A stretch of 64,000 nt of DNA from a virus, in the IMG/VR virus record IMGVR_UViG_3300021426_000003, positions 39,151 through 103,150 of that record, one strand, 5' to 3'. The notes beneath the pieces are model-generated. The model did not search any database. It saw nothing but the letters and a program-made list of their open reading frames with translations, and had not been told where the DNA came from. A program made the position numbers and the translations under genes. This document shows positions 10,972 to 40,340 of this stretch, piece after piece. Each line of letters opens with the position of its first letter. The stretch's first letter is position 1.

Positions 10972-10995
10972 TTTTCATTCCTCCTTTCTTCAAAA

Positions 10996-11475
10996 TTATG
11001 CACCAATTACAAGCTTGCCATCTGCATTGCAAGAAGTAATCTTTTTACCAACCGCAGGTTCACCTACGAAACATTCTTTAGAATATTCCATAATGTCACC
11101 ACGAATCAGAGTATAAGCTTTAGCTACAGTACCAGCAGGAAGGTAGAAATTCTTTTCATCAGCGAACCTCTTAGTAAAATCTTCTGCAATAATAACAGGC
11201 ATGTGGATAAACAGAACATCAGCATCAGCATCAACACTGTTAACCTCTACATACCAATTGCCATTAGTAGCTTGCTGTTTAATTTCAAGTTCAAATGTAG
11301 GAGCAGCAGCTTCAGCATAACGGTCAAGTTCCTGCCAAGCACCACGACCAACAATTTTTCCGTTAGGTGTATCTTTCTCCAAAGTAATGTTATAGATATG
11401 AGGAGAGCCAGCAGAAGCGGCTACTTTGGTCGGGAATGATACACCAAATGTTTCAATGGTATACTTAATTGCCAT
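10996..11475 (-). CDS. hypothetical head protein (decoration or scaffold-like by position)
   Basis: 159-aa ORF with a strong RBS between the scaffold-like and capsid genes. Confidence 0.45.
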   Translation of the reverse strand: MAIKYTIETFGVSFPTKVAASAGSPHIYNITLEKDTPNGKIVGRGAWQELDRYAEAAAPTFELEIKQQATNGNWYVEVNSVDADADVLFIHMPVIIAEDFTKRFADEKNFYLPAGTVAKAYTLIRGDIMEYSKECFVGEPAVGKKITSCNADGKLVIGA

Positions 11476-11503
11476 ATCTTCATTCTCCTTTCGATTATAT
11501 TAT

Positions 11504-13453: not shown

Positions 13454-15004
13454 TTATCCATTTGAACGGTCTCGTTTGTCACGACTAGCTTCTCCGCTGT
13501 CTGTAAGGTCTTCAGGGTCTTTTTTTAAATCTTCTCCACCTACATTACTTGTTGTATGGGAAGACTGAAGAGGAGAAGTAAATATATTTCCAAGTCCTAA
13601 TATATCTTCCTCAAAATGATTCAGTGCCAAAGTTTCTAATTCAGAAAAACCAGACAATGTATTTACAGCAAGTTTTGTCGGAAGAGAATAGGTGGCATTT
13701 TCTAAAAGCTCTTTTCTTAAATCTGGTTTAGTAAAATAAGATACTTCAAAGAATTTAACTCTACAAGGGCTACTAAGATAATAACCAAGAAATCTATTTA
13801 ACCATCCTTGCACTTGAGGCAGAAGAGAAGAGAGTGCCATCTTTGTATCTAATTTAGTTGCTGCTAACAAACCAGTAGTACCTTGAATAGCTTGAGAGTT
13901 AAGCAATTGAGCACCACCACTATTATTCAAAACGTTTTTTGTAGCATTAGATACTTTATTAATATCAGTTGTTTTATTGTCATCAAATGAAATTGTGTCC
14001 AATTTTCCTGGCACTATAGCAGCAGATGTATAATCTGGAATAGCATCTTCACACATTCTGTCAAAATATTTAATTATTAACTCGGGGTCTACTTTCCAAT
14101 CATCAACTTGTTTACCAAGCGTCTCCATGGATAAATAAATCATTTTATAAATATCTTGCTCATCTGCTATAGCTTGAACATTTTTTGTATCTTCTAATGA
14201 AATAATATCATTAAGCAAACCACTAAAAGGCGGGACAATAACCATCCAATCTTCAACGTTATGCTTAAAACATGCTGTATATTTTTCTGGCATTAACATC
14301 CAGCGATTATTAGTTGTATCTTTAAGATATTCCTTATACATAGTAGTAAAAGGCTCGCCCCAATAATCAAGCAAATCTCTGTTTGTGCCATTAAAATACA
14401 TCATATTAAAAGCATATGCAAAATCTCCATTTGTAAATTGTCCGACAATCTTACAATATTCTGGAGGTAATGGCATAATATATAATCCGTCATCATTATA
14501 ATAAGCCACACCATAAAACACATCTTGTGTAAAACAAGTTATAAATATTTTTAGAAAATTGGCTTGTAAACTCATATTATCTAACATAACAGCCGTATCA
14601 TAATAATTTTTTAAAATCTGTTTATCATTATTATTTTGAGTTAAAGAATAACTGGGTATTATACTTCTTGCTCCAAGTTCAAACATACAAGCATTATATA
14701 TAATAATCCTTCTATATGTTTGACTACGATAAAACATATACCATGAAAGATTTCTTAAATTATTTTCGTTACTTCCTATATTTCTTAAATAACTAAGTAA
14801 TTGCTCCTTATCAAAAGTGGCAATTGATTTTCTATAGTTTTTTGTTATATCTCCAAGTTGATGTAACGCATTAATAGCAGTTGTAAAATTATATTTTTGT
14901 TCATCTGAAAACTGCTCTTTAATTTTATTTAATTCTTGCAGATTTATTTGTTTATTTGATGCGCTATTCGCTGCATCGTATTCGGTTGTCTTTCTTCGAG
15001 CCAA
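13454..15004 (-). CDS. putative portal protein
   Basis: 516-aa ORF immediately downstream of the terminase large subunit; call is by position and size only. Confidence 0.5.
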   Translation of the reverse strand: MARRKTTEYDAANSASNKQINLQELNKIKEQFSDEQKYNFTTAINALHQLGDITKNYRKSIATFDKEQLLSYLRNIGSNENNLRNLSWYMFYRSQTYRRIIIYNACMFELGARSIIPSYSLTQNNNDKQILKNYYDTAVMLDNMSLQANFLKIFITCFTQDVFYGVAYYNDDGLYIMPLPPEYCKIVGQFTNGDFAYAFNMMYFNGTNRDLLDYWGEPFTTMYKEYLKDTTNNRWMLMPEKYTACFKHNVEDWMVIVPPFSGLLNDIISLEDTKNVQAIADEQDIYKMIYLSMETLGKQVDDWKVDPELIIKYFDRMCEDAIPDYTSAAIVPGKLDTISFDDNKTTDINKVSNATKNVLNNSGGAQLLNSQAIQGTTGLLAATKLDTKMALSSLLPQVQGWLNRFLGYYLSSPCRVKFFEVSYFTKPDLRKELLENATYSLPTKLAVNTLSGFSELETLALNHFEEDILGLGNIFTSPLQSSHTTSNVGGEDLKKDPEDLTDSGEASRDKRDRSNG

Positions 15005-15014
15005 AGCGCACCTC

Positions 15015-16775
15015 CTATAATGTTCTCATATTTAAACGTCCTTTTTTTATAGTTAATCTTTCTACTAAAGATTGAGTATCTTCATAATGGGGACGTAGTT
15101 GTAATTCTAATTGTGAAGCACACCAGTAATTATAAGCGATAGAAGAGTATCTATCCTTCCTACAACCTGATGGTTCAAATACGGTTATTTTATTGTTTTT
15201 AATATAATATTTTAATTTAACCAATTCATATACACCTAGCGTACATTGAGCATATGGCATTTTCATTCTGGCTTGTTCCATTGGGGTCATCTTTTTAAAT
15301 GATTTATATTCTTCAGCAATTACTTCATCTGCATTTTGTTCTGGAATTAAAAAATTAATTCTACCATTGTTAATGGCATTTCTTAACAATACACAAATTG
15401 TATTATTAAAATCAGCTGTTGCTTTTACTGACCACACCACCCTCAAGGCGTTAGGAACTTTACATCTAGCAGCCATTTCATCATTATTACAACAGCTTAA
15501 TGCTCCATATACTTCTCCTGTCTCTGGGTCATACTGGTCTTTAGCTATAAAATCTGCTATACCTAAACCTACTCCATTGGTATCAACTACTAAGTCGGTA
15601 CATTTGTACTTATAAAAATATCTCATTATTATTATTCCTAATTCATCAGTAGTTAATCCTTCAAAATTCTCTCCATAAACAAAATTAGATTGGTAAGTTG
15701 TAGTAGTAGTTCTTATAGCATCATTTATATAAATAGATGAAGCATCATTTTTCTTTTTGTTTGTTGATGCCATAAGTGCAATATCTACAGACATAATTCT
15801 TTTACCACCAGCAGGAGGATTGGGTATTGAAAATTTCTCATTATAATAATCTAAAGGATAAAGACAATGTTTAACTCTTCTTATTTTATTTAAAGAATCA
15901 AATTTAAATAATCCACCTTCAGTATCTCCATACCATAAACATTCATCTTCCATCGAAAAAGCAATTTCATTAAAATCTGCTTCAGACATTTGGTCTTCAA
16001 CTTGTCCTCTATCCAACAAATGCTCTCTAATAGATAATTGATATGGAAGTCCGCATATAAAGTATTTTTGTTTATCACTAAAAAAATTTGCAGTATAAGT
16101 TTGAGCTTTGGTATACGCCCATGAACTTTTAAAATATGCAGATGATAAATACAATTCTTTGTTTCGTTCTATTAAATGAGCATATTCTGGTTTATCCAAA
16201 TATTTAGGATGTCTAGGAGCTTTTAAAAATTCTCTTATAACACTATCAAGTATTTTTTTATCTACCATTCTAAACTCATCTACAACAATTATATTAGCTC
16301 TGGCAGAACGAGAGTTTTCAGTACTAGTTCTTGTTTTAATCCAAGACCCCCCTTTAAATCTAATAGTTGCATCATTTTGCCCTATTTTCATTTCTTCAAT
16401 ACAAGATTGAAGAATAGGAGAGTGTGGATATATTTCATCTTGAATTTTTAAAAGCACTTCATTTGCTTGTTTTAATGTTGCTGATGTTACTACAATTTTA
16501 CTATTAGGATATAAAATACATCTACACACACAAAACACCGCAGTTAACCAAGTTTTTCCAGCACCACGGGCAGCAATATACATAAAATAATTATAGTGCA
16601 TCATTGCCCAGATAAGAATTGCTTGAAACCATTTTAAATTTATATTTAATATATCTTTACAAAACCTTTGAGGATTAGCACGATAATAACCAGCTCTCCA
16701 AGCTATAGTCTCCATTATTTTCTGAGACTTTTCTTGCTCAAGTTCTTTTATATTTTTTTTATTTTCAACTACCAT
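15015..16775 (-). CDS. terL: terminase large subunit
   Basis: Walker A YIAARGAGKTWLTAVF and Walker B IIVVDEF in the N-terminal ATPase; 586 aa; followed by the portal gene. Confidence 0.8.
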   Translation of the reverse strand: MVVENKKNIKELEQEKSQKIMETIAWRAGYYRANPQRFCKDILNINLKWFQAILIWAMMHYNYFMYIAARGAGKTWLTAVFCVCRCILYPNSKIVVTSATLKQANEVLLKIQDEIYPHSPILQSCIEEMKIGQNDATIRFKGGSWIKTRTSTENSRSARANIIVVDEFRMVDKKILDSVIREFLKAPRHPKYLDKPEYAHLIERNKELYLSSAYFKSSWAYTKAQTYTANFFSDKQKYFICGLPYQLSIREHLLDRGQVEDQMSEADFNEIAFSMEDECLWYGDTEGGLFKFDSLNKIRRVKHCLYPLDYYNEKFSIPNPPAGGKRIMSVDIALMASTNKKKNDASSIYINDAIRTTTTTYQSNFVYGENFEGLTTDELGIIIMRYFYKYKCTDLVVDTNGVGLGIADFIAKDQYDPETGEVYGALSCCNNDEMAARCKVPNALRVVWSVKATADFNNTICVLLRNAINNGRINFLIPEQNADEVIAEEYKSFKKMTPMEQARMKMPYAQCTLGVYELVKLKYYIKNNKITVFEPSGCRKDRYSSIAYNYWCASQLELQLRPHYEDTQSLVERLTIKKGRLNMRTL

Positions 16776-17866: not shown

Positions 17867-17939
17867 AGCTCCCAGACGGACTTGAACCATCAACCTATTG
17901 ATTACAAATCAATTGCGCTACCAATTGCGCCATAAGAGC
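17867..17939 (-). tRNA. tRNA-Thr (anticodon UGU)
   Basis: The reverse complement folds as a cloverleaf: acceptor GCTCTTA/TGGGAGC, D arm GCGC-AATTGGTA-GCGC, anticodon arm ATTGA-TTTGTAA-TCAAT, T arm GATGG-TTCAAGT-CCGTC. Confidence 0.7.
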
Positions 17940-19925: not shown

Positions 19926-19980
19926 AATAGTAATCATTTTAAATCCCTCAATGAGGAATAATACACCTTTAGGTGTAGAG

Positions 19981-20056
19981 CGATTTAGGAGGGATTTGAA
20001 CCCTCGCTCCCCAGCGTGACAGGCTGGTGCTTTAAACCGAACTAAGCTACTAAACC
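19981..20056 (-). tRNA. tRNA-Asp (anticodon GUC)
   Basis: The reverse complement GGTTTAGTAGCTTAGTTCGGTTTAAAGCACCAGCCTGTCACGCTGGGGAGCGAGGGTTCAAATCCCTCCTAAATCG folds as a cloverleaf with anticodon loop CTGTCAC and discriminator G. Confidence 0.7.
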
Positions 20057-23531: not shown

Positions 23532-26213
23532 TTAAATATTATTTACTTCTTTGTTTTTGATATTTTTTGAGAAACATTCTAAAAACTGCTTTGAATTTAA
23601 TTCATATAAAGTCTTTAATAATAATGGTCTATTTTTATTTAAGTTTGTTTTTATTGGTCTACCTTTATGTTTTACTTTAGAAGATGTATTAAAAGCCCTA
23701 TTGATTAAATAAGACATTAATCCTAAATACTTTTTAGTAAAAGTTATTTGTTTTATATCTTCAATTAATTGGTCAAAATCAGAATTGAGTAATAAATAAT
23801 CTTCTTCATTTTCAGTGTCATCAATTTCATTATTTTTATTATAATTAAAAATCCTCAATGAATATTTATTTATTAGTTCTTCAACTTTTCTACTCTTAGT
23901 TTTACTAATATCTAATTCATAAGTATTTAAAAATTTATCTATAGAATAAGTAGAAGAATTAGTACTTATTCTTGGATTAATATTCATATTATACAAAGAA
24001 TTCATTGGACATTTTATTTCTGAATTATACATTGAATTTCTTCTTTCAATCTGTTTATCAGTTAATTCAGATAACTTAACACCATTACGTTTATCATTTT
24101 TCTTTTTAATTGCTTTCCAGAAAATAGGATACCCATTCGTATTAATATTCATATCACGTTGAATTCTGTCTATTTCTTCTGAAATATTTATATTATATGT
24201 ACGTTTACTATTGTCAATTGCAGCCTGAGCTATAACTGATAATATACATACATAATCTGTAAATTTTTTGTCTAAATAAGAATAAGAATATGATAATGCC
24301 AATTGCGCTAAATTTGAAGAACCACCTATATCCCCCTGACTAGCAGCCAATTTATTATCTATTTTAGCAAAATCTTCTAATGAATTTGTATAAATATTTT
24401 TTTCTTTAGGAATATTATTTACAATCGTGGGATAATTTTGAATACAATATTTAGCATGAACTACGATATCTGATTGATTTGTTGTATATATTGAATCGCT
24501 ATCCTGATCACTACCATTGTTTCTATCTTGAAAATCTGTACCAATCATATTAATAGCTATACAATTTTTTCCAATATTAAAATATTTTTCCAATCTCCAA
24601 TCATAATGATTATGTAAATATCCTAAATTATTACGACTATTAAAAGGATTTCTAAATTCTGCAAGATATTCATTATCTTCAAATCTTTCCGTATAACATT
24701 GTATACATCCGTCTTCGTGTTCAAATGTTGGGTCAGATTCTGGGTCTTCTCCAACAGTATATAATAACATCGCAAAAGGAGAACCGACTATTGTAAGATT
24801 ATCTCCATTATTAATTATTCTCCCCATTTTAGCATTGGCTATATAGCTTTGAATTATTCTATCTCGTCTATCTTTAAAATAAGAGCATTGTTCAAATTCA
24901 GAATCCTGTTTAATTAATGCAATCAATACTTCAAAATCATTTGAAAAATTTGCATTTCTTTTTAAATAGTCTAAAAAAACATTTATATTGTTTTTTAATT
25001 GATAAATATAATCCTTGGTACATTGAACCGCACCTTCGATAGTGTTTATATCTAAAGCATTCACCATCTGATAAGACTGATATTGAACATTGCCAAGCTT
25101 ACTTGGATGAGCAGTTTTAACAATTCCAAACCAATTATCGTTATCCTGTTTAACTCGCTTGCACCAATACTCATAAGTAATACCATTAAATTTTATCCAC
25201 TTAATAGCGTTATCTGTAGTTACCATTTTAATATCAGTAACTTTATGTTCATTACCCCACATGTCTTTAATCACTGCATTTTCATATTCATCTCCATAAT
25301 AATCTTTAAACCATTGTTGAAGATAACAATCAAAAGCAGCCGCTTTAAACATATGTTGTCTCAAAAGAATATAACCATTTCCCCATGTTGGAAATAAACT
25401 ATGGTCAATTAATGCTTGTCCATCAAATAAAACATTGCCCAATTTATAATTCTCTTTTTTAACAGCTTGACAATGACCTTTATCATCAAGTTCTATACTA
25501 ATTGCGCTTCCTAAAAAAGATGATTCAACATCTTTTAATATTAATATATCCTTTGGGTCAATCTTAACTTTCCCGACAATAGAAGAAGCAACCAATGAAG
25601 AATAAGCTCCGATTTCAACAATGGGAGCATTTTCTTTTGGGAGCTGAATTCCCATATATAAATAATCCCTTGCAATATCATAAAGTTCCTCACGAATAAA
25701 CATACATGAGCCAGTTTTGGCTTTACCAGTAGAGCGGAAGAGCATTTTATAATGTATCTTTTCTGTATCAGTTATTTTGCCTTTTTTACTATATACATTA
25801 TAAAAAATATCTACTCCCTGAGTATAATAAAGAATTCTAAGCTGGTCTTTTGTATATCTTACAAATTTATCTTTATTATCTTCGGCTTTAGATTTTAAAG
25901 AATTTAAAAAATCAATCTTTTGTTGTTTTTGCTCTTCAGATATTTTTTTATCTTTTTCATATGATTTAATTCGTTTATTTAAATGAGCAATTTCTTCTTC
26001 ATAAGTACGGCTACCATATTTAAAAGTAATACAAATTATATCTCTAGTTGATTCACCCTTATAAACATCCAATCCATGCGCTACCATATAATCTTTAAAA
26101 AGGCTGTTAATCAACATAGCTTCAGTAATATCATATCTATCACGCACTCCTATATTTTTTTCCATAATTGAGCCAGCTGCAAAATTATTAATGCGTAATC
26201 CAAACTCTGACAT
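23532..26213 (-). CDS. large hypothetical protein (893 aa)
   Basis: Uninterrupted ORF with a strong RBS; no Walker A or polymerase motifs recognised; last gene of the desulfurase/radical-SAM transcription unit. Confidence 0.55.
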   Translation of the reverse strand: MSEFGLRINNFAAGSIMEKNIGVRDRYDITEAMLINSLFKDYMVAHGLDVYKGESTRDIICITFKYGSRTYEEEIAHLNKRIKSYEKDKKISEEQKQQKIDFLNSLKSKAEDNKDKFVRYTKDQLRILYYTQGVDIFYNVYSKKGKITDTEKIHYKMLFRSTGKAKTGSCMFIREELYDIARDYLYMGIQLPKENAPIVEIGAYSSLVASSIVGKVKIDPKDILILKDVESSFLGSAISIELDDKGHCQAVKKENYKLGNVLFDGQALIDHSLFPTWGNGYILLRQHMFKAAAFDCYLQQWFKDYYGDEYENAVIKDMWGNEHKVTDIKMVTTDNAIKWIKFNGITYEYWCKRVKQDNDNWFGIVKTAHPSKLGNVQYQSYQMVNALDINTIEGAVQCTKDYIYQLKNNINVFLDYLKRNANFSNDFEVLIALIKQDSEFEQCSYFKDRRDRIIQSYIANAKMGRIINNGDNLTIVGSPFAMLLYTVGEDPESDPTFEHEDGCIQCYTERFEDNEYLAEFRNPFNSRNNLGYLHNHYDWRLEKYFNIGKNCIAINMIGTDFQDRNNGSDQDSDSIYTTNQSDIVVHAKYCIQNYPTIVNNIPKEKNIYTNSLEDFAKIDNKLAASQGDIGGSSNLAQLALSYSYSYLDKKFTDYVCILSVIAQAAIDNSKRTYNINISEEIDRIQRDMNINTNGYPIFWKAIKKKNDKRNGVKLSELTDKQIERRNSMYNSEIKCPMNSLYNMNINPRISTNSSTYSIDKFLNTYELDISKTKSRKVEELINKYSLRIFNYNKNNEIDDTENEEDYLLLNSDFDQLIEDIKQITFTKKYLGLMSYLINRAFNTSSKVKHKGRPIKTNLNKNRPLLLKTLYELNSKQFLECFSKNIKNKEVNNI

Positions 26214-26226
26214 AAATCACCATCCT

Positions 26227-27387
26227 TTATTTTTTATCATCCATATGAAGCTCCTTCAAAATCTTAACATTCTTAACTAATGACTCAATTAAATTTTCAA
26301 CATCTTTTTCTGTAGTATATTCATCAAAACTTATTCTAATAGTAGAACGAGCTTCATCATCTGTAAGACCAATTGCCTTTAAAACTCTGCTAGGAACATT
26401 TTCTCCAGAGGAACAAGCGCTTCCAGCAGATACAATAACCCCATCCAAATCCATAAGAGTAATTAATTCTTGAGCAGGAATATTCGGAATCGTCAAACTA
26501 ATAATATGTGGAGAACAATATTCACCATTTTGCTTAATCCCCTCAATTATTTTATTACCATCAATAAGACCAAGTTTTTTCTTAATCGACCAACTCGTAT
26601 CAGCAATATTTTTTAATCTAAGAGCTTTTGTTTTTTTAATTTCTTCAAGACGATTTCCCATTGCAGTAATTAAATAACTTGGTTCAGTTCCTGCACGAAG
26701 ATTATTCTCTTGATGTCCACCTGTTAATAATGGCTGTAATTTAATTCCTTCTTTTACATATAAAAATCCACAGCCTCTAACACCACCAAATTTATGAAAA
26801 CTGGCAGATAACATATCAATACCCATACCTTGAACATCTATATCCCTATATTCAATAGCTTGTGTAGCATCCACTAATAGACGTCCTCTATACTGATGAA
26901 CCAATTTTGAAATCTCATAAATATTTTCAGTAGAACCAATTTCATTATTAACATATGAAACACACATAAGTTTTGGGTTAGTAAAAGTATAATTTGTTTC
27001 AATATACTTTAATACTGCTTCAAACTTATCTAAATTAATTTGCCCTCCAGAAGATACGGGTACATAATAATTTCCAACGCAATAAGACCAACCCATAGTT
27101 TTATAAATAGAAGGGTGGTCAATAGCAGAACACATTACAATATCCCAATTACTTCTCATAACAAGATTATTACTTTCGGTTGCACCCGATGTAAAAATAA
27201 TTTCTTCGGGCTTACAATTAATATAATCAGCAACTTGTCTTCTTGCATGTTCAATTTGCAATTTTACTTTTCTGGATTCTTCAGAAGTGGAAGAGGGATT
27301 ATACCAGTAATCCCTCATACCTGTTTCTATATCTTTAATAACTTGTTTTGTCGGCTTAGTAGTAGCCGCACAATCAAAATATGCCAT
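26227..27387 (-). CDS. cysteine desulfurase (class V aminotransferase, IscS/NifS-like)
   Basis: PLP-lysine context SASFHKFGG and active-site loop VSAGSACSSGENVPSRVLKAIG (compare IscS [21 protein letters not shown]). Confidence 0.85.
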   Translation of the reverse strand: MAYFDCAATTKPTKQVIKDIETGMRDYWYNPSSTSEESRKVKLQIEHARRQVADYINCKPEEIIFTSGATESNNLVMRSNWDIVMCSAIDHPSIYKTMGWSYCVGNYYVPVSSGGQINLDKFEAVLKYIETNYTFTNPKLMCVSYVNNEIGSTENIYEISKLVHQYRGRLLVDATQAIEYRDIDVQGMGIDMLSASFHKFGGVRGCGFLYVKEGIKLQPLLTGGHQENNLRAGTEPSYLITAMGNRLEEIKKTKALRLKNIADTSWSIKKKLGLIDGNKIIEGIKQNGEYCSPHIISLTIPNIPAQELITLMDLDGVIVSAGSACSSGENVPSRVLKAIGLTDDEARSTIRISFDEYTTEKDVENLIESLVKNVKILKELHMDDKK

Positions 27388-27399
27388 AATTAATTCTCC

Positions 27400-27597
27400 T
27401 TAGTATAAAGGATTATAATCGTTTATATTTAAAATTTCACTATCGTAAATATAATCCTGTATTGCAATTTCTACTCGCTGATGCAAATCTTCAGAAATAT
27501 CCTCTAAATCAACGCATGATTTTGGTTTAACAGCTTCACACAAATCCATAACTAATATTTCAAAATTTAAACCATCACTAAATGAAATCTTACTCAA
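27400..27597 (-). CDS. hypothetical small acidic protein
   Basis: 65 aa, translationally coupled between the radical-SAM and desulfurase genes. Confidence 0.35.
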   Translation of the reverse strand: MSKISFSDGLNFEILVMDLCEAVKPKSCVDLEDISEDLHQRVEIAIQDYIYDSEILNINDYNPLY

Positions 27598-28499
27598 TCT
27601 TTTTCCACTTCCTCTCTAATAATTTCAAACATCTCGTCAATAGTCTTGTCCCCAATAGGATATGTAATAGGGGACAAACTACTTCTTGCAAATACACCCT
27701 TAACTAAATCAATAAAAAAAGTTACAGTCCCATCGTCACCACCATAAAACATATTCCATTCTTTATCGCTAAGTCTGTCTTTGATATGTAACTGCTCAAT
27801 GGCAAGATTATCAAAACTCACAATCTTAAACCCATTGATAACCTCATCAAGTCCACCTTCAAGATATTTCATCTGAGTAATGATAGGTATAAACATACCA
27901 TCATAATATTTTTTACCCCTACCAGTTTTCTTATATCCAAGAATTAGGATTTTTAAACCATGCCCCATAAGATACTGAATATCTTCCCAAGGTGTAATTC
28001 CAGCAATAACATGAATTATAGCGTTTGGATATTCTTTTACTTTTTCAATAAACCCTTCCTGCCTTGGATCTGTAAGAGAAATACCAATCCCTTTAATATA
28101 TCCCTGCCTAATCCACACATTCATCTGTTTTCTTACATCATCGTCCATAAAATGATTCTGATTAATAGTCACATTGCAGATGATATGATGATGATTCATA
28201 AGGTATAAGAACGTGCTAAAATCGGGATGAACAGGCTTCTGAAGATTAATTGCAATTTCCGTGTAAGGACGCATTGAGCCAAAGAAACGCCAACCTAAAA
28301 TCTGACCATGTCTACCAGTGGGAGAACATCCGTAATAACACCACTCACATCCATTATCGCAACACTGTGAAACTTGCACATCCATAGATTCTGGGAAGTC
28401 AAACTTGAACTCATCATCCATTGTGAAGTGTTCTTTTGTACCATCTTCATAAATAGTTGTGTATGTATTACCATTCTTATATGTAGCTATTCTTTTCAT
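27594..28499 (-). CDS. radical SAM protein (QueE-like CX3CX2C cluster)
   Basis: VSQCCDNGCEWCYYG contains C-x3-C-x2-C with an aromatic residue before the third Cys, as in B. subtilis-type QueE CDYSCSWCD; 301 aa. Confidence 0.6.
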   Translation of the reverse strand: MKRIATYKNGNTYTTIYEDGTKEHFTMDDEFKFDFPESMDVQVSQCCDNGCEWCYYGCSPTGRHGQILGWRFFGSMRPYTEIAINLQKPVHPDFSTFLYLMNHHHIICNVTINQNHFMDDDVRKQMNVWIRQGYIKGIGISLTDPRQEGFIEKVKEYPNAIIHVIAGITPWEDIQYLMGHGLKILILGYKKTGRGKKYYDGMFIPIITQMKYLEGGLDEVINGFKIVSFDNLAIEQLHIKDRLSDKEWNMFYGGDDGTVTFFIDLVKGVFARSSLSPITYPIGDKTIDEMFEIIREEVEKD

Positions 28500-28508
28500 T
28501 ATTACCTC

Positions 28509-28997
28509 TCAATCACAATCTGTATGCAACCATAAATAAGGGTTAAAAATAAAATTGATTAATTGTTCTGTATCATATAAATTAATAATACAGTTTTCAG
28601 TATCATATTTACCATAAGGTATTGATTGATGGTCTAAATAATCACCAGCCATTTCATCCCCATCAAACATGGTTTTATCAATCCATATTCCTTTACAACC
28701 ATTCCCTACATAATTCACAAAAGATGTATTAAATCTTTTCCATGAAGACCCTTTAAATAAATCTTCAAGATTACAACCATAATAGATATACATCCAAGTA
28801 ACTATATAGGTCAGTTTTTCACGCTGACCTTTATAGTCCTTTTCATCTTTTCCATAATATTTTGTAAGGCTAACATGGACATATCCGTCATCTGCAATTT
28901 TCAATTTAGATTTATGCATATGTTTTTGAGATATCTGAAGAGTATGAATACTAGAACTGTTTGTTTCAAATGTCTCAAATCTAATTTGTCTCTTCAT
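28509..28997 (-). CDS. ETNSSS-family paralog A (hypothetical)
   Basis: N-terminus MKRQIRFETFETNSSSIHTL shared with two upstream paralogs. Confidence 0.5.
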   Translation of the reverse strand: MKRQIRFETFETNSSSIHTLQISQKHMHKSKLKIADDGYVHVSLTKYYGKDEKDYKGQREKLTYIVTWMYIYYGCNLEDLFKGSSWKRFNTSFVNYVGNGCKGIWIDKTMFDGDEMAGDYLDHQSIPYGKYDTENCIINLYDTEQLINFIFNPYLWLHTDCD

Positions 28998-29008
28998 AAT
29001 TTCTCCAA

Positions 29009-29320
29009 TTATCCATCATAACCATAAATAGAAACTGCAACCACTTCATCACCATGTTCTGTTGTATATTCTGTAGTTTCTATGTCATAATAATTTCCAT
29101 AAGGGCTTTCACAAGGGTTATCCCAAAAGTCATCTGAATATTTTTCATATTCTTTACTTTCATTTTTATTAACCCATGTGTCATTCATCCAATCCCATAC
29201 CCAATCAGGGTCATTCCATTTCCTGTTCCAATCTTCATATTCTTTTTTAGTCATAATAGTAAGAGTATTTACAGAACTTGAATTAGTTTCCCATACGCTT
29301 GTTCTAATCTGTTTTTTCAT
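29009..29320 (-). CDS. ETNSSS-family paralog B (hypothetical, acidic and Trp-rich)
   Basis: ATG at 29318-29320 with a GAGGAG RBS gives MKKQIRTSVWETNSSSVNTL...; the rest is D/E/W-rich. Confidence 0.5.
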   Translation of the reverse strand: MKKQIRTSVWETNSSSVNTLTIMTKKEYEDWNRKWNDPDWVWDWMNDTWVNKNESKEYEKYSDDFWDNPCESPYGNYYDIETTEYTTEHGDEVVAVSIYGYDG

Positions 29321-30137
29321 TTTCGCTCTCCTCATAAAGGAAATAATCGAAACTTCCCCTTTTGGGAAATTGTAATACAATAGAATCTTTATTAATTAAT
29401 CCACACTTAAACATATCAGAAAGGGTACTATATTCATCCCCCGTTATAATCACAACAACATCTTTCCTAACAAGATAATCTTCTAATGACAGATTATTAT
29501 CTTTTAAAAATCTTTTAAGTAATCCCGCAGATTGATGGTCTATTCCTCCAAACTTTGGTACATCAAACCAAGCTTCTTCAATAGGTCTACCATCTATATC
29601 TACATTTTTATACATACCCCTAACCAAATCGTCTTCAGATGAATCTTTCCGTTCATCTTTATCTACATAAATAAGTTTCTGATAAGGCACTTCTTCAACT
29701 TCATCAAGATTATCTCCACCACCTACATAGACTTCAAAAGGTCTATCATCCCATCTGTCCCATTCAATATCGTCACATCCAATAAGACGAATGAGCAAAG
29801 GTTTAAACATCTCATCAAATGTCTTCTCGCTTTCAAGATAAGACTTAATACTGTAATTATTCCCACAATACTCTGCTACAGCATAAGCAAGTTTATCTGT
29901 AAATGTCACAAGAACATTGAAAGGAGAGCGTCCAAACTCATTATCCCAAGGGTCAATCTTTACAACTTCCTTTTCATCATTTTTATGATGTTCTTTGTAC
30001 CAATCCTCATTAAGATAAAATTCATTACGAATTTCTTCCTGTGTCATTCGAATGTTTGAATTTTTCTTTGTAACCACTAAGCTATGCATCGATGAACTGT
30101 TAGTTTCGAAACAACCTTTTCTAACTTGATATTTCAT
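29304..30137 (-). CDS. ETNSSS-family paralog C (hypothetical, acidic)
   Basis: N-terminus MKYQVRKGCFETNSSSMHSL; 277 aa, D/E-rich. Confidence 0.5.
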   Translation of the reverse strand: MKYQVRKGCFETNSSSMHSLVVTKKNSNIRMTQEEIRNEFYLNEDWYKEHHKNDEKEVVKIDPWDNEFGRSPFNVLVTFTDKLAYAVAEYCGNNYSIKSYLESEKTFDEMFKPLLIRLIGCDDIEWDRWDDRPFEVYVGGGDNLDEVEEVPYQKLIYVDKDERKDSSEDDLVRGMYKNVDIDGRPIEEAWFDVPKFGGIDHQSAGLLKRFLKDNNLSLEDYLVRKDVVVIITGDEYSTLSDMFKCGLINKDSIVLQFPKRGSFDYFLYEESENEKTD

Positions 30138-31496: not shown

Positions 31497-32480
31497 TTAT
31501 TCCTCTTTACTTTCTTTAGGAGATGAATTTATATCAAGCATTGGGACAGAATTCCCTCCAACTACAGAAGGTCTCCAATTCCCAATAGATTCAGCTTGGA
31601 CTCTTTCAACATCAATTCGTTTTAATTCAATAAGTTCTGGTGTTAAAGATTCTGCTATTTTTCTATTAGATTCAGCTTCAGCCTCTGCTGCAATTCGTTC
31701 TCTTTCAGCCGCAGCTTCTGCTTCTTGCTTTTTTCTTGCAATTTCTGCATCAGATTTAATCTTTGCTTCTTTTGTTTCAGCTTCAGCATCTGCAAGTTTC
31801 TTTTCATTTATATATTTAGCATTTTCTGCTTCAAGTTTAGCGAGGTCTCTTTTTTCAAGAGCGGCGTTATACTCTTCGCTAAAATCCATATTGCCAATAT
31901 TAACAGAATTAACTGTAAGGACTGATTCTTTATAATACTTATTAATTTCTTCCTGCAAATATTTAAGTGTGAGAGGTTCAATATAACTTCTATTTGTCAC
32001 TTGGTCATTAGGAAGTTCTACGGCAGCACGTTTAATAGCAGTACTAATAATACTTCCTTTTAAAAGTCTATAATCCCATTCTTCAACATTAGACCAAATC
32101 CAAGCTGCTTTTTCTGAATTAATTTGAAAACTAATTCTAATGTTTTCCGCATATACAGGGGTTCTTTCAGAACTTTCTCCCCAAATCTTATCTTCATATT
32201 TTGTATCCTGTTGTTTACAATTTATTTTATCTACATGATAAATAATAGGAATAGAAAAATATTGCCCAGAAGGAAGTACTTCTCCCGAAATCTGACCATA
32301 TGTTGTTTTAATTCCTACATACCCACTTGGGACAATAACAATTGAAAATCCCCAAATAAACAATACAGCTCCTAAAACAAATCCTATAACTCCAAATGCT
32401 TTTCCTTCATCAATTATTACCAACCACGCAACAGATATTCCTAAAATAATCAGACCAATAATCACCAACAATAATTTCAT
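31497..32480 (-). CDS. SPFH/band-7 (stomatin/prohibitin/HflKC-like) membrane protein
   Basis: N-terminal TM segment, band-7-like core, and a C-terminal Ala/Glu/Lys coiled coil (EAEAAAERERIAAEAEAESNRKIAES). Confidence 0.7.
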   Translation of the reverse strand: MKLLLVIIGLIILGISVAWLVIIDEGKAFGVIGFVLGAVLFIWGFSIVIVPSGYVGIKTTYGQISGEVLPSGQYFSIPIIYHVDKINCKQQDTKYEDKIWGESSERTPVYAENIRISFQINSEKAAWIWSNVEEWDYRLLKGSIISTAIKRAAVELPNDQVTNRSYIEPLTLKYLQEEINKYYKESVLTVNSVNIGNMDFSEEYNAALEKRDLAKLEAENAKYINEKKLADAEAETKEAKIKSDAEIARKKQEAEAAAERERIAAEAEAESNRKIAESLTPELIELKRIDVERVQAESIGNWRPSVVGGNSVPMLDINSSPKESKEE

Positions 32481-32512: not shown

Positions 32513-33043
32513 TTATCTATTAATCACATTAAAATGACAATGTTCCAATATATCTAATGCTTTTTCATGCCATTCTGGAGTAGACCCAGCACAGCAAGCT
32601 GCATCAATAGTGATAGGAATATTAGGGAATGCTGCTTTCAATGTCATAGCATTTGCTAATATACAGAAGTCAGTGTCAAGTCCTACTATTTCTACTTCTG
32701 TAATATCTTTAACTAAAGATCCGTCAGGGTAAGGGTATCCAAAAGTTTCTTTTTCTATATAAAAAATATTATCACGACTTAAATAACTGGATATTAAATT
32801 TAAAATATCTTCATGTATTTGCCATCCTTTTGTTTTATAAAGACAATGTTTAATAGGAAGATGTTTTCCTTCTTCTGTTTCTAAGTAATCAGTATGATGA
32901 GTATCTTGAGTTAAAACAATAAAATCAAAATTGACATTTTTAATTTTTTCTACTACCTTAGGTACAATAGCTTGAGCTTCGGGGCTACCTAATACTCCAT
33001 CAATAAAATCATTCTGCATATCAATTACAACTAAAAGCTTCAA
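32513..33043 (-). CDS. pncA: isochorismatase-family cysteine hydrolase (nicotinamidase/pyrazinamidase-like)
   Basis: VVIDMQNDF N-terminal motif and VGLDTDFCILA catalytic-Cys context typical of PncA/isochorismatase. Confidence 0.7.
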   Translation of the reverse strand: MKLLVVIDMQNDFIDGVLGSPEAQAIVPKVVEKIKNVNFDFIVLTQDTHHTDYLETEEGKHLPIKHCLYKTKGWQIHEDILNLISSYLSRDNIFYIEKETFGYPYPDGSLVKDITEVEIVGLDTDFCILANAMTLKAAFPNIPITIDAACCAGSTPEWHEKALDILEHCHFNVINR

Positions 33044-34768: not shown

Positions 34769-35293
34769 TTACTCCTCTTCAGTGTATGCTTTTATTTCTG
34801 TAACTTCGCAATAACCATTATCTTCAAAATCTAAATCCATTACTAAACCAAAAGAATCATATTGGTCATTTTCATTAATAACACAATATACATTTGTTAC
34901 CATATATTTATTTTCTAAAGGTATATCATTTATAGTATTGATTTTTACAAATTTTATAATATATTCAAAATCATTTCTGTTAAAAAATTCATTTTGTTTG
35001 AATAATTTTATTAATTCATCATATGCAATTTTGAAGGTAGGATATTTTTTTGCTTCTTTAAGTGTTCCAACTTCATTAGGAGCAGAACATATTTTATTTC
35101 CGAAACAATCTATTTTACTTGTTGTATTATTACCATCATAAAAACCATCATCTCTCCATTTTTCATTATAATCAAGAATTATATATTTGTATTTTCCACC
35201 TTCTTGAGGAGGTTCATCAAGCCATTCTTCAATAAAACCAAATACATAAAAACTCTGCATGTTTTGTTTTTTTAAAAGTTTTGTTTCTGTCAT
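34769..35293 (-). CDS. hypothetical protein
   Basis: 174 aa; start MTETK duplicated; coupled to the nucleotidyltransferase gene. Confidence 0.45.
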   Translation of the reverse strand: MTETKLLKKQNMQSFYVFGFIEEWLDEPPQEGGKYKYIILDYNEKWRDDGFYDGNNTTSKIDCFGNKICSAPNEVGTLKEAKKYPTFKIAYDELIKLFKQNEFFNRNDFEYIIKFVKINTINDIPLENKYMVTNVYCVINENDQYDSFGLVMDLDFEDNGYCEVTEIKAYTEEE

Positions 35294-36324
35294 TAAACTA
35301 CTCCTTCCTGATATAATACAGTTAAATTGGCATCATATAAAAAATCATTAATTCGTTTATAATCAGGGTTATCTGGAAGAGGAGAGTGGTCTTTTAAATA
35401 ATTTAATTTATTTTCCATCTCATCAACAATATCATAAAACTCTTTAGTAGGTTGTTTATCATCATCCAAATACTTACCATTTCTAATATCCATTAGGAAA
35501 TCATGTTCTTTTTTTCTATATGTAATAATCTTACCGTCTTCAAGAATATCAAAGCACATAAGATATAATCTAATAAGATGCATCATATGTTTGCTTAACT
35601 TATCATGCTCAATGGCTTTTGAATTACGTCTTCCAATTTTAGAATAATCTTTAACAATATTCTGCATCTCTGACCACATAGATTTATAATCCCTAAGTGG
35701 ATAATGTTTTAAATTTATATCCATAAAAATTTCTGTATCATAATCTTCTTGGATAGCTTTATCAATATAAAGCTTAATAGAATCTTCTGGATAATTAAAA
35801 TATTTATCTGGATAAGAATATCTTGCATTTTCAATACTTGCTAAAATATGTTTTTCTCTTTGCTCCTGTTCTACTGTACGAACAGCTTTATTAGATAATC
35901 TTCGAAGTTGTGCAGTAGCATAACCACCGAATGAATGGGCAGCTCTTTTAGATAGAAACATATCTTTATTTTTAATAAGCTCTTGACCAATATAACCTGT
36001 ATATAAATACTGCCAAGGTTCAAGACCTAAAATTTCAATTGTATTAGGATTACAATTGGAAAGAAGATTAACAATCTTTTCAAGAGAATAAACAGTTGTA
36101 TCAGTAGCTTCATTAACAACCTGTTCAAAACCTTTTCTTGTAAGAATATCTTCTGAATTATGAGTAGCCACACCTCTGATATCCAAATCACTGTTTTCAG
36201 TATTAGTGCCATAAGCATAGCTGCCACCAAGTCCTAATAGAATAATATTGTTGCCCAATGGTTTTTCTTTTAAAAAACTGTATTCAGAAGAAGCAATTTT
36301 ATTTTTAATTTCTTCAATTGTCAT
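35293..36324 (-). CDS. Pol-beta-superfamily nucleotidyltransferase
   Basis: GLGGSYAYGTNTENSDLDIRGV matches the hG[GS]-x9-13-Dh[DE]h NTase signature; 343 aa with a helical C-terminal domain. Confidence 0.6.
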   Translation of the reverse strand: MTIEEIKNKIASSEYSFLKEKPLGNNIILLGLGGSYAYGTNTENSDLDIRGVATHNSEDILTRKGFEQVVNEATDTTVYSLEKIVNLLSNCNPNTIEILGLEPWQYLYTGYIGQELIKNKDMFLSKRAAHSFGGYATAQLRRLSNKAVRTVEQEQREKHILASIENARYSYPDKYFNYPEDSIKLYIDKAIQEDYDTEIFMDINLKHYPLRDYKSMWSEMQNIVKDYSKIGRRNSKAIEHDKLSKHMMHLIRLYLMCFDILEDGKIITYRKKEHDFLMDIRNGKYLDDDKQPTKEFYDIVDEMENKLNYLKDHSPLPDNPDYKRINDFLYDANLTVLYQEGVV

Positions 36325-36657: not shown

Positions 36658-36878
36658 CTTGTAACCTTTCTTATAACTATTTGATTATCTATATCAATAT
36701 TGGCTTCACATGTAGTATCTAAACAATCTTTTCTACAATGAGAGTATAATGGTAATCTATCTTCTTTAGGAAGAATAATATTTAAAATTATATCCCTTTC
36801 ATTTGGACATGAGTTTAAATAATACATCTTATCTTTAACTTGTTTTGCAATTTTTCTTCTTAATTTCTTTTTATCCAA
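36654..36878 (-). CDS. hypothetical small Cys-containing protein
   Basis: 74-aa ORF, coupled. Confidence 0.35.
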   Translation of the reverse strand: MDKKKLRRKIAKQVKDKMYYLNSCPNERDIILNIILPKEDRLPLYSHCRKDCLDTTCEANIDIDNQIVIRKVTR

Positions 36879-37332
36879 TTGTTGTAAACCTCCAAAGGTA
36901 TCTATAAATTTTAGAAATTATATTATTTAATTCTTCCTTTGTATTTTTATATATAAACAATTTATCTATTTCCTCTTTATACCAAGGATGAAGAGAAGAA
37001 TAATTTTCTTCTGGAATCATACCTATAATTGGTTTATTTAATGTATATGCATACATCATTTCCTGAGCAGTACCAATAGAAGAGAATGAATTAAAATTAA
37101 TTATTATTATATCTGAGTGTTTAATCCAATAGAGGTCATATTTCATTGCTTCTTTTTCGTATAATTGGTCTGAGTTATTTGAAGGTGTATATAAATATGT
37201 TGGGTCTATAAAAATAAAACCATTACCTTCGTGTACATTTTCCAATTTAAATCCTGTTCTCCAATAAGAAGCTTCTTCTTCTGTTAAACCTGTCATTCCT
37301 CCACTAAGAAAGACTTTTAATTTATCTGACAT
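36871..37332 (-). CDS. nucleoside 2-deoxyribosyltransferase-like protein
   Basis: VFLSGG ... SIGTAQEMMYAYTLNKPIIG matches the SGT-x-E-x-G-x-A-x-x-KP signature of the NDT/DNPH1 family. Confidence 0.55.
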   Translation of the reverse strand: MSDKLKVFLSGGMTGLTEEEASYWRTGFKLENVHEGNGFIFIDPTYLYTPSNNSDQLYEKEAMKYDLYWIKHSDIIIINFNSFSSIGTAQEMMYAYTLNKPIIGMIPEENYSSLHPWYKEEIDKLFIYKNTKEELNNIISKIYRYLWRFTTIG

Positions 37333-37867: not shown

Positions 37868-38158
37868 TTAAAAACAAATATAAATAATGAAAGTTACTAC
37901 TACTGAAACAAGAAACAGGATATAAAAAAATACTCTAATTTTTTCTATAGCCTGAAAGAGAGCAGTGAGTTCTTCCTTATAATAATAATGTTCTGAATAT
38001 GATGGGGAGTTTGTATTAATTTCCCAAATACTAAGATTAATATAAGAAAAAATTTCTGCTATAGCTAGGATAAGCAATGTTGTTATGGTGGATAAAAATT
38101 TTAAGTTCATGTGTACCCCCTCCTGAGGTATGTGATTTGTGGTGCGGTTGGTTAACAT
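37868..38158 (-). CDS. small membrane protein
   Basis: 96 aa with two hydrophobic helices; last gene of the minus-strand block. Confidence 0.4.
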   Translation of the reverse strand: MLTNRTTNHIPQEGVHMNLKFLSTITTLLILAIAEIFSYINLSIWEINTNSPSYSEHYYYKEELTALFQAIEKIRVFFYILFLVSVVVTFIIYICF

Positions 38159-38227
38159 TTATAAACATGTAAATAATATACATGATTTAATTATATGGGT
38201 TTAATCGGAAAAGTCAAGAGGATAGGA

Positions 38228-38312
38228 AAGAATATAGTAAAGAATATAGTAAGAAGAATATAAAATATTTAATGTGGATAAAGTGGATAGAGTGGATAAG
38301 TTTGTGGATAAG
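38228..38312. promoter_or_regulatory. origin-like element: tandem 12-bp repeats plus four DnaA-box-like 9-mers
   Basis: AAGAATATAGTAA twice (38228-38252); TGTGGATAA (38274-38282 and 38304-38312, the exact reverse complement of TTATCCACA) plus GTGGATAG and GTGGATAAG, all in one orientation about 10 bp apart. Confidence 0.5.
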
Positions 38313-38697
38313 TTAGAGAAATTTAAAAGAATTTTAAAGAAATTGACGAAAAGATAGGCGAGAATTGGGAGATGGGGGATTGAGTGATTAAATATGTAAA
38401 AATAATTAGTGTTGTGTGGTTTAAGGGGCGACCCGGTCGCTAAAAAAATCCTTTATTTATCAGGTTTTTCCTACCCCGGTACGGATCATTTTTACTCCTC
38501 AATTTTGACTTCCAAAAATCCGTATTTTTGGCACTTTTCGAGGATCGCTGCGCTGGAAAAAACGAACAGATGTACGAATTTGCCTCAAAATCCCAATTTT
38601 GCCACTATGCGACCAGCTCGTTCGAGTGGCACGGACGGGCACACACACAGACATGCCACACAAGCCACGGCGCTAAAGCGCAGAGAGGAGAAAAATC

Positions 38698-39270
38698 ATG
38701 GCAAACAAGAACACAGGCAACACACAGGTACAGGCAATCGCAATCGCACAGGCAATGGCAATCACGCAAGCTATGCTTGCGTTGGATGCGTATCGGACAT
38801 CGCTCCTCGCGTATGCAGATGCGGACGCACATGAGGATCGTGAGCGCATGAGCATGTACGCATCACTCGGCAAGGGCGAGCGCAAGGCAGTGTGGAACGC
38901 ACTTGTGAAAGCGGGCTTTCCCGTAGGGAAAGCTGTGCTTCCCAAGACCGAAGCAGCAGCGCCTGCGCCCAAGCAGTCACAGACTCCTACGGAACGTGCT
39001 GGTGAGGTGTGCATGTGGGTACGTGATGGCGCATACGTGAGCACTGCCACCGCAGGTGGCAAGTTCGTTGGTCGCAGTGGAATCCGCAAGATTCTCAACG
39101 CTCGCATCCGTAAGGCGGGTGGCACATACGACAAGGCGCACAAGGCGTACAAGTTCCCGAACGAGCAGAACGCCATTGACTTCGTCAATGCTACATCCGC
39201 TACGGTCACGGACGAGCAGTTCCGTGAGTACATGGGCACACTGGAGCGCAAGCACAATGAGAAGGCGTAA
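38698..39270 (+). CDS. hypothetical protein encoded by a GC-rich foreign cassette (190 aa, Ala/Lys-rich)
   Basis: AGAGGAGAAAAATCATG RBS; about 60% GC versus about 30% in the flanks; followed by a strong terminator; upstream TTGACT with a TCCAAAAAT/ATTTTTGGA palindrome. Confidence 0.55.
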   Translation: MANKNTGNTQVQAIAIAQAMAITQAMLALDAYRTSLLAYADADAHEDRERMSMYASLGKGERKAVWNALVKAGFPVGKAVLPKTEAAAPAPKQSQTPTERAGEVCMWVRDGAYVSTATAGGKFVGRSGIRKILNARIRKAGGTYDKAHKAYKFPNEQNAIDFVNATSATVTDEQFREYMGTLERKHNEKA

Positions 39271-39284
39271 GCCTTCTCGAGGTT

Positions 39285-39322
39285 CACAGTCGGGCTTCGG
39301 CTCGGCTGTGATCCTTTTTTTT
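39285..39322 (+). terminator. intrinsic terminator with a UUCG tetraloop
   Basis: 11-bp stem CACAGTCGGGC/GCTCGGCTGTG (two G-U pairs) with a TTCG loop, then ATCC and T8. Confidence 0.7.
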
Positions 39323-40340
39323 GTGCCTTTGAGCCCCTTGTTGATCATATGCTTATCGAAATTTTGTATAAGCATGTGATGAATAAGGGCTTCAAAAAAA
39401 CGCCCTATATGCATATACGAATCAGATAATATCGCATATGTCTGGTGTTGCAAGTCACCAATCATTTCTACTTGCGTTTTTCAAAATCGGGTCGGTCAGT
39501 ACTCGTTAACCACTGACAAAGAATAAAACCGTTATAATCGAAGGCTTTTATGTCAGCTACCTACACCGTAACGGTTACATATTGCAAAATGTATTGTGTT
39601 ATAACAATGCTCAATCAAAAAAAGAGCCAAGGACACAAATATGTCTCCAATATTTGTGATTGCAAAAACATGCACAATTCAACTTTAGAAATCTTAAGTG
39701 CCTTAAAGGTAGGTGATAGATTGCTAAGTGTATGAATATCCTGCTCAAAGAAAGGAGGTGAGAGCGATATAACACAATCCATAACATTGCAAGTTGACGA
39801 TTGGTCGGAATCAATCAATCCCTTTAGGATTTGTCCTTGTGAATGTTATTCTTGCCGTATGTACTTCCGTTAGAGAGGCATGGGTCAAAAGACTGGCGAT
39901 TAGTCGAAGGTGACAAGGGAGTAGGAGCTCCACTCGGTTATAGTCCTTCCGCAAGATAGTCAGAATGGCTTGGCACAACTTACCAAGGCTGACTGATAAA
40001 GGGGCGGTACTACAAAAGTGACCGAGAATAAAAAATAACAGGCGACTGGACAAACCTGTTATCAAACTGGCATCTGTTGAGACTAAAACTAAAAATTAGA
40101 CTCAACTGCGTATACTTAGTAACTCGCAAGGGTAAGTACCTTGGGGAGCAAAGACGCACAGTAAGGAATAAGTCCACTAAACAATTGATTTATTCGGCAG
40201 ATGAATAAAGATATATGTAATAAAAACATATATATAATAAAACACCTAATGAATAATAAAATTGCTCTTATGGCTTGTGTGTCTTTCTTGTCAAGGGGAT
40301 AGAGTAGCGGTTGCAATAAGTACATACAAGTACATTGTTG

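Follow-up and report, generated by a model that had tools for sequence, protein, structure and literature searches.

A shared N-terminal arm marks phage proteins as probable dedicated partners of an uncharacterized radical-SAM enzyme

In glycyl-radical systems, such as PFL with its activase PFL-AE, NrdD with NrdG in phages and bacteria, and the small 'spare-part' protein GrcA/YfiD, a short terminal motif common to the clients enters the activase; one activase serves several clients, and the small protein shares the motif only. Radical S-adenosylmethionine (SAM) enzymes also mature ribosomally synthesized and post-translationally modified peptides (RiPPs), as in the NHLP/Nif11-type, PqqE/PqqA, sactipeptide and ranthipeptide systems, and the anSME/AtsB maturases modify sulfatases. 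In phages, DNA hypermodification and nucleotide metabolism have repeatedly proved to involve radical-SAM enzymes with unusual chemistry. Here we analyze three tandem genes located directly upstream of a radical-SAM gene in a 64,000-nt stretch of phage DNA (positions 39,151 to 103,150 of IMG/VR record IMGVR_UViG_3300021426_000003, hereafter the window). Their products, denoted types A, C and B, are members of a large undescribed phage protein superfamily and share an N-terminal arm containing the residues ETNSSS, through which they probably act as dedicated partners or clients of the radical-SAM enzyme.

The locus resembles each of these systems in part. As in the glycyl-radical systems, which also occur in phages, a radical-SAM gene lies beside genes for dedicated candidate client proteins, but the conserved Gly of a glycyl-radical client (an RVxG[FWY]-type motif) is not present in the arm. 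With the RiPP maturases it shares an N-terminal module on different C-terminal parts, the presence of paralogs and a variable copy number; it differs in that the 'cores' are folded and 70-250 aa long, the invariant residues lie in the 'leader', fusions to the radical-SAM enzyme occur in both orders, and no RRE, SPASM, twitch, protease or exporter was found. The anSME/AtsB case, in which one radical-SAM maturase acts on many folded hydrolases, at a Ser or Cys of a short conserved motif close to their N-terminus, is similar in layout, but the arm lacks a (C/S)-x-P-x-R motif, the radical-SAM protein lacks SPASM, and the body does not have the alkaline-phosphatase fold. The smallest protein shares its size and strong acidity with Ocr/ArdA-like DNA mimics, a likeness of composition only.

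The three genes are arranged head to tail on the minus strand, directly upstream of the gene for a 301-aa CX3CX2C protein at 27594..28499 (minus strand). The type A protein (277 aa, 29304..30137, pI 4.65) consists of the arm and the long form of a novel-fold body; type C (103 aa, 29009..29320, pI 4.26) consists of the arm and a small acidic, aromatic-rich body; and type B (162 aa, 28509..28997, pI 6.05) consists of the arm and a short form of the type A body. The type A stop and the type C start overlap by 17 nt, the remaining intergenic gaps are 9-11 nt, and a correctly spaced Shine-Dalgarno site precedes each of the three genes. The length of 103 aa is counted from the ATG at 29320; an extension of this open reading frame (ORF) from a TTG start to 29380 is unlikely. 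Independent gene calls on a public 108-kb contig with an identical radical-SAM protein give the same 277/103/162/301/65/386/893-aa series. Coordinates and gene calls thus agree with an earlier sequence-only reading of this DNA, which had noted three tandem genes with a shared N-terminus directly upstream of a radical-SAM gene. That the window is phage DNA is evident from a large terminase gene at 15015-16775 and a portal gene at 13454-14737.

All three proteins begin M-K-x-Q-[IV]-R-x3-[FW]-E-T-N-S-S-S. The arm is encoded on the minus strand at 30072..30137 in type A (residues 1-22; ETNSSS at 30090-30107), at 29255..29320 in type C (ETNSSS at 29273-29290; in this lineage N replaces H18) and at 28932..28997 in type B (ETNSSS at 28950-28967). 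A six-frame translation of the window contains ETNSSS three times, each at one of these N-termini, compared with 0.0057 occurrences expected from composition. Positions M1, K2, Q4, R6, E11-S16 and L20 are invariant among the three arms; the first ~20 residues, which the sequence-only reading had called almost identical, are in fact 55-65% identical. At the DNA level, identity over the first 60 nt falls to 55-60% among the three genes, and 219 instances of the motif use all six Ser codons at each of the three Ser positions. These two observations indicate that conservation of the arm is selected at the protein level, and they rule out an RNA-level, recent-duplication or gene-conversion origin of the shared 5′ ends.

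Across the family the arm follows the consensus M-K-x-x-[IV]-R-x-G-x-[FW]-E-T-N-S-S-S-x-H-[ST], with the core pattern R-x4-E-T-N-S-S-S-x-H and the E about 10 residues from Met1. This E is at residue 10-11 in 131 of 143 representatives and at residue 9-12 in 140. Among 365 distinct arms, which were selected as matches to a hidden Markov model of the arm and are therefore biased towards conservation, N-S-S is invariant, and E (363), H at +7 (362), the third S (360) and R at -5 (359) are nearly so. Separately, the E-T-N-S-S segment (e.g. 30090-30107) fits the extended bacterial N-glycosylation sequon D/E-x-N-x-S/T; the match is probably a coincidence, because there is no linked glycosyltransferase and the proteins are cytoplasmic, without signal peptides.

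The bodies behind the arm are numerous and conserved. The 277-aa protein has 412 relatives in a collection of 5.8 billion proteins, and a profile search of 1.84 billion representatives returned 564 clusters (50% identity, E ≤1e-3), mostly of 160-290 aa, that align in two blocks, N-terminal and C-terminal. A motif scan of viral sequences matched at least 600 stretches, of which at least 211 encode a relative. In diverse members the arm is followed by FG(R-x-PF), a K-x2-Y helix, G-x-[IV]-D-H-(Q-S) and a hydrophobic terminal strand ending D-x-D. These motifs read FGRSPF, DK-x2-YA, G-x-IDHQS and (D/T)GDEY in the 277-aa protein, and YGKD, EKLTY, LDHQS and C-terminal TDCD in the 162-aa protein. The superfamily alignment is invariant at R6, E11, N13, S14-16, H18, G49, K61, Y64 and the final D. 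Orthologs in the 277-aa clade have 77 invariant columns spread over the full length (mean column identity 77%), and the structure model of the 277-aa protein has a predicted local distance difference test (pLDDT) score of 89.8.

We clustered the bodies of the arm-bearing ORFs of 82 phage loci and the window after removing the first 24 residues. Two clusters account for the window proteins: cluster 1 (92 proteins, 64 loci) holds the 277-aa and 162-aa proteins, and cluster 2 (64 proteins, 63 loci, one Lak megaphage included) holds the 103-aa protein. Cluster 1 divides by C-terminal signature into four mutually alignable types: A (long, ...DGDEY..., the 277-aa protein), B (~150-165 aa, ending T-D-C-D, the 162-aa protein), D (ending Y-K-G-N, in gp130 of the cultivated Microcystis phage Ma-LMM01 and in a Lak protein) and E (ending D-N-D-N-H). 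Type B has orthologs in at least nine other loci (L003, L004-7, L008-9, L012, L022, L031, L040). With N-termini removed, a type B body aligns to a broad type A profile in hhalign (P 93.5%, E 2.3e-7), and the DH and the terminal DxD co-align; a narrow profile of the 277-aa clade matches type B bodies only at the DHQS motif. As judged from these profiles, the 277-aa and 162-aa bodies are remote homologs.

The type C family (95-147 aa, pI 4.2-5.3) is acidic and conserved. Its layout is the arm, C-x2-[ED]-[YF]-x2-W-x2-G, an acidic region of varying length and a C-terminal T-x2-G-[DE]-x-V-V-A-F-G-x-Y-G-Y-D-G, an ending also written G[DE]-x-VVA-x-G/S-x-YGYDG. D+E make up 16-24% and W+Y+F 13-21% of nearly all 46 distinct sequences, the exception being one apparently frameshifted ORF (L076). 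Conservation is focused in the arm and the C-terminal beta-hairpin-like motif rather than in a charge pattern. In a profile-profile comparison (hhalign), alignment of type C with the other types is confined to residues 1-29 (P 99.2%, E 3.6e-19), so that the type C body is unrelated to the 277-aa and 162-aa bodies. The earlier description of bodies that diverge completely therefore holds for the 103-aa protein and fails for the other two.

Because the similarity of type C ends at residue 29, we regard the arm as a portable module carried by at least two unrelated bodies. The ~25 N-terminal residues do behave in the 'leader-like' manner proposed earlier. In the tandem-body proteins P0233, P0238 and P0265 a single arm is present, on the first body, and the armless second body of P0238 has an intact DH/DxD; P0235 has kept both arms. 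Some type A members have the arm without DH. In the monomer model of the 277-aa protein, residues 1-10 form a coil (pLDDT 59) despite a conservation of 90% or more at R6 and F10, and residues 11-20, the ETNSSS region, lie beside the first strand (pLDDT ~80). The placement of conserved residues in a low-confidence segment of this model suggests an intermolecular role for arm residues 1-10.

None of the arm proteins matched Pfam, NCBIfam or PADLOC, nor the PDB in profile searches, and the fold model of the 277-aa protein had no match among solved structures. Their sole PHROG match is phrog_28997 ('unknown function'), the family of Ma-LMM01 gp130. A Toprim domain (conserved E following strand 1 and DxD following a later strand, on a Toprim fold) was considered and rejected. 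The sequence-only reading had allowed that the N-terminal motif might belong to a known enzymatic domain present in single copy elsewhere; some phages do have only one copy of the globular domain to which the motif belongs, yet this domain is none of the known ones. Neither the DNA of the region (megablast) nor the 277-aa protein (tblastn) returned a match among 50,697 phage records, and in the literature searched, including that on phage radical SAM, Lak and Ma-LMM01, we found no occurrence of the ETNSSS motif and no description of such a system.

The link between arm genes and radical-SAM gene, which the sequence-only reading had noted in the window, holds almost without exception. We fetched 142 loci, 82 from viruses or phages and 60 from GTDB genomes, the latter mostly gut or rumen Firmicutes or Bacteroidales metagenome-assembled genomes with some isolates, e.g. 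Eubacterium plexicaudatum ASF492, where the locus (L085) lies in an element of ~110 kb. A radical-SAM homolog adjoins 1-4 arm genes in 134/142 loci, among them Lak megaphages, Ma-LMM01, and gut and rumen phages; at 35-97% identity it is present in 80/82 viral or phage loci and 54/60 GTDB loci, and the loci without it include some that are ended by a contig edge. For viral contigs fetched through the arm motif, the homolog lies immediately beside the arm genes in 77/80. The reverse approach, starting from the radical-SAM protein, found adjoining arm genes in Ma-LMM01 and Lak-B5 as well; the Lak and Ma-LMM01 arm genes were found only through ORFs adjoining radical-SAM matches. The hosts range from gut Firmicutes, and Prevotella in the case of megaphages, to a bloom-forming cyanobacterium.

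All-versus-all clustering of 1715 neighboring ORFs placed the arm family in 82/82 loci, the radical-SAM family in 80/82 and the next family in 24/82. No conserved protease, transporter, exporter or immunity gene appeared in this clustering of the 82 loci, and no third family exceeded 24. Only the arm family and the radical-SAM family are universal in the module, and their linkage is near-obligate. The number of arm genes per viral or phage locus varies from one to four (1 in 4 loci, 2 in 57, 3 in 12, 4 in 9), a copy-number comparison that had been proposed earlier. The 90%-identical relative L001 encodes types A and C without B, L002 encodes type A only, and L004-7 encode types A and B. Natural fusions of an arm-bearing body to the radical-SAM protein were read directly in P0165, P0273, P0279, P0282, P0285 and P0288, and a fusion of radical-SAM protein and type C in P0275, where the arm is internal, at the C-terminal side of the radical-SAM part.

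The 301-aa neighbor belongs to an unnamed branch of the radical-SAM superfamily. It matches phrog_16999 ('Fe-S oxidoreductase', E 2.4e-26) and has 1870 homologs at E ≤1e-5. Its features are a conserved N-terminal hairpin, Y-x-NGN...DGTK, the cluster motif C47-x3-C51-x2-C54, LLGYK-x2-GRG and FDNLA-x2-QL; C47, C51 and C54 are invariant or nearly so and are the sole conserved Cys of the family. PF04055 (Radical_SAM) is matched by 9/21 diverse homologs (best E 2.5e-10), and the window protein itself has no PF04055 match. The only Pfam families found in these 21 homologs were PF04055 and Fer4_12; no RRE, SPASM or twitch domain was detected. NCBIfam gave weak, scattered matches only (MoaA, NrdG2, viperin and others, each in ≤4/21); the NrdG2/NrdG models (E ~1e-5) were level with MoaA, viperin and the rest. 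Matches to PDB profiles are restricted to the cluster loop. In some homologs, such as P0271 (649 aa), an intein interrupts the protein exactly ahead of the third Cys of CX3CX2C, from which we infer that the site is functionally critical. At L048 the protein is encoded by two ORFs ~960 nt apart (9260-9748 and 10711-11625), each with one intein half: one has the N-extein and the N-part of the intein, the other the C-part (...VSN|CHE) and the C-extein. The arrangement may represent either a split intein or one whose endonuclease gene is embedded or frameshifted.

The arm proteins and radical-SAM protein of the window have true homologs in Ma-LMM01, namely gp130 (phrog_28997, hypothetical) and gp128 ('Fe-S oxidoreductase', phrog_16999), and the gene order is the same. 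Ma-LMM01 differs in that it encodes a single arm protein (type D, ending YKGN), whose gene is separated from the radical-SAM gene by an unrelated 112-aa gene. The genes gp128, gp129 and gp130 are all middle genes of subclass B5 (PMC5780444, Table S3). They are expressed strongly at 3 and 6 h of infection after silence at 0 and 1 h, and the sole mapped middle promoter of gp130-gp128 lies upstream of gp130 (PMC5780444). Replication and nucleotide-metabolism genes belong to the same expression class (PMC5780444). Immediately upstream of gp130, and also of the middle class, is gp131 (L081:3058-3858), a class-II aminoacyl-tRNA-synthetase-like gene annotated 'histidyl tRNA synthetase'.

Taking these comparisons together, we consider it probable that the arm proteins are dedicated partners or clients whose arm engages the radical-SAM enzyme. 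The arm is the likely coupling element because all partners share it and nothing else, because one arm per polypeptide suffices and lies at a fixed distance from the N-terminus, because the monomer model assigns no role to its first conserved residues, and because the conserved hairpin of the radical-SAM protein could pair with it. One radical-SAM enzyme and 1-4 arm proteins would form a self-contained module expressed mid-infection. The arm would physically engage the enzyme, probably by pairing with its conserved N-terminal beta-hairpin, and would bring its invariant N-S-S(-S)-x-H loop to the site of SAM and the [4Fe-4S] cluster.

As to what follows from this contact, we tentatively prefer a relation of maturase and client, while holding it short of an even chance. 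Here 5′-deoxyadenosyl-radical chemistry would modify or activate a residue of the N-S-S loop; the DH/DxD bodies would thereby become active enzymes, with the small type C protein as a motif-only client. The model parallels a glycyl-radical enzyme with its activase and GrcA, or anSME with its sulfatases. It is favored by the presence of one enzyme for several clients, by invariant residues that are small and polar, and by a small protein that has the motif only. In the alternative, which we judge somewhat less probable, the arm would be a non-covalent subunit that completes or gates the radical-SAM active site, while the body would bind the real substrate, possibly a nucleotide or nucleic acid. 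A subunit or pathway model is favored by how often fusions occur and by the lack of auxiliary clusters. The bodies have an invariant polar constellation (G, K-x2-Y, D-H, D-x-D), and a more specific proposal, speculative and rather doubtful at present, is that the enzyme installs a modification, protein-based radical or cofactor on an arm Ser or Asn that serves as the catalytic group of new-fold enzymes. Small acidic type C proteins would in that case be autonomous carriers of the modified arm. If true, this would be a new protein-derived cofactor system of large phages, acting mid-infection, e.g. in nucleotide or nucleic-acid chemistry.

Several observations weigh against engagement of the enzyme by the arm, or against particular versions of it. 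The radical-SAM protein lacks the auxiliary-cluster, RRE and SPASM domains typical of protein- and peptide-modifying members of its superfamily. An enzyme fused to its own protein substrate is unusual, and the fusions favor a subunit or pathway role over a client role. The arm logo has no invariant Gly (its invariants are R, E, N, S, S, S and H), which excludes a classical glycyl radical. The E is replaced by A in P0285 and P0288 (FATNSSS), and the bias of model-selected arms, stated above, flatters the conservation. Finally, by the monomer model, the ETNSSS loop may belong intrinsically to the body.

This last point bears most directly on the rival that survives best, although we think it unlikely: that the proteins are independent enzymes of one pathway, ETNSSS being an intrinsic catalytic or metal/phosphate-binding loop of small enzymes, and the arm not touching the radical-SAM enzyme. 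These small enzymes would act before or after it on a shared small-molecule, nucleotide or nucleic-acid substrate. Enzymes of successive pathway steps are typically fused or encoded in tight operons, and the replication and nucleotide-metabolism context, with the Ma-LMM01 genes in the middle class, would suit such a pathway. The active-site-like set K, Y, DH and DxD would suit an enzyme, but type C has the arm on an unrelated body without the DH/DxD set, and some type A members keep the arm after loss of DH. Tandem-body proteins, moreover, keep one arm only, and in P0238 the body with intact DH/DxD is the armless one. The position of ETNSSS beside the first strand (pLDDT ~80) is as this rival expects, but the segment that contains the conserved R6 and F10 is left unpacked in the monomer model.

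The sequence-only reading had compared the layout to RiPP precursors, in which the radical-SAM enzyme would recognize the leader and modify variable bodies, with bioactive products then released. A ~25-residue N-terminal module common to different bodies and several paralogs per enzyme in variable copy number are indeed what such a family would show, but the proposal now appears very improbable. The bodies are conserved folded domains of 70-250 residues (the 277-aa model reaches the pLDDT given above) without hypervariable cores, types B and C are conserved across distant phages, and the invariant polar residues sit in the 'leader' itself. The enzyme has only three conserved Cys and no detectable RRE or SPASM, no conserved protease, transporter or immunity gene is nearby, and the fusions run in both orders. 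The setting, moreover, is a middle operon of a lytic phage.

About as improbable is the suggestion, also made from the sequence alone, that the type C protein is a DNA-mimic anti-restriction or anti-defense decoy that merely travels with the radical-SAM gene. The compositional half of the suggestion stands: the family is strongly acidic (pI 4.2-5.3) and aromatic-rich, with a middle region of variable length. The decoy half does not fit with obligate linkage, since type C has the arm in 63 loci and is fused to the radical-SAM C-terminus in P0275. Nor is there a Pfam, PADLOC or PHROG anti-defense match; conservation is in the arm and the C-terminal motif and not in a charge pattern, and the homologous module is co-transcribed in the middle class in Ma-LMM01. 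A capsid-targeting sequence or propeptide, like that of T4 internal proteins cleaved after h-x-E, that loads proteins into the prohead is the least credible reading: unrelated proteins with a common N-terminal sequence at a fixed distance from Met1 and the [VC]-F-E tripeptide ahead of TNSSS recall it, but the strongest conservation (N-S-S-S-x-H) lies past the putative cleavage site, linkage and fusion to a non-structural, armless radical-SAM protein are left unexplained, the P0275 arm is internal, and the Ma-LMM01 homolog is a middle and not a late gene.

The genes surrounding the module in the window, all on the minus strand, appear to be accessory. A 65-aa acidic ORF (27400..27597, pI 4.05) overlaps the radical-SAM stop by 4 nt and is called in public assemblies; tblastn found no homologs in L001-L080, including the 90%-identical L001, so the ORF is lineage-specific and its membership in the module is doubtful. 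Two genes downstream of the radical-SAM gene is a NifS/IscS-type cysteine desulfurase (26227..27387; TIGR03402, E 5e-73, under the curated cut-off), which adjoins the module only in the clade of the window (L001, L003-L009). It is a lineage-specific accessory gene whose product would likely donate sulfur for the Fe-S cluster of the radical-SAM enzyme. The following 893-aa ORF (23532-26213) matches only phrog_8308 (unknown function, E 3e-77), with no match in Pfam, and has homologs downstream of the module in L001, L002, L004, L005, L007 and L011.

Upstream are a Band-7/SPFH membrane protein gene (31497-32480), an isochorismatase/nicotinamidase-like gene (32513-33043; PF00857, E 4e-17), a nucleotidyltransferase gene of the RlaP family (35293-36324; RNA-repair pathway, pol-beta family) and a gene for a nucleoside 2-deoxyribosyltransferase/DUF4406-like protein (36871-37332). 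Isochorismatase homologs lie ≤6 kb from the module in 14/82 loci of several clades. In the L013 clade the module is flanked instead by RNA-ligase-like and kinase+HD genes. The NifS, isochorismatase and RNA-repair genes were considered as core components and rejected as lineage-specific. A GC-rich island at ~38000-40000 (GC 0.44 versus ~0.30 elsewhere) coincides with a switch of coding strand and the cumulative GC-skew minimum, and holds an Ala-rich 190-aa ORF (38698-39270). Genes for tRNA-Thr (TGT, 17867-17939, minus strand) and tRNA-Asp (GTC, 19980-20056, minus strand) lie beside the packaging genes.

The module is new as a protein family and as a system; a radical-SAM enzyme with dedicated, motif-sharing partners has precedents as a general logic. 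Either form of the proposed contact between arm and enzyme would establish something new, be it a system of radical-SAM partners or clients or a protein-derived modification, and the module would annotate thousands of phage genes now listed as 'hypothetical'. It is compact, consists of two families and is expressed in the cultivated phage Ma-LMM01, and its tightly constrained 8-residue loop provides a precise, testable handle.

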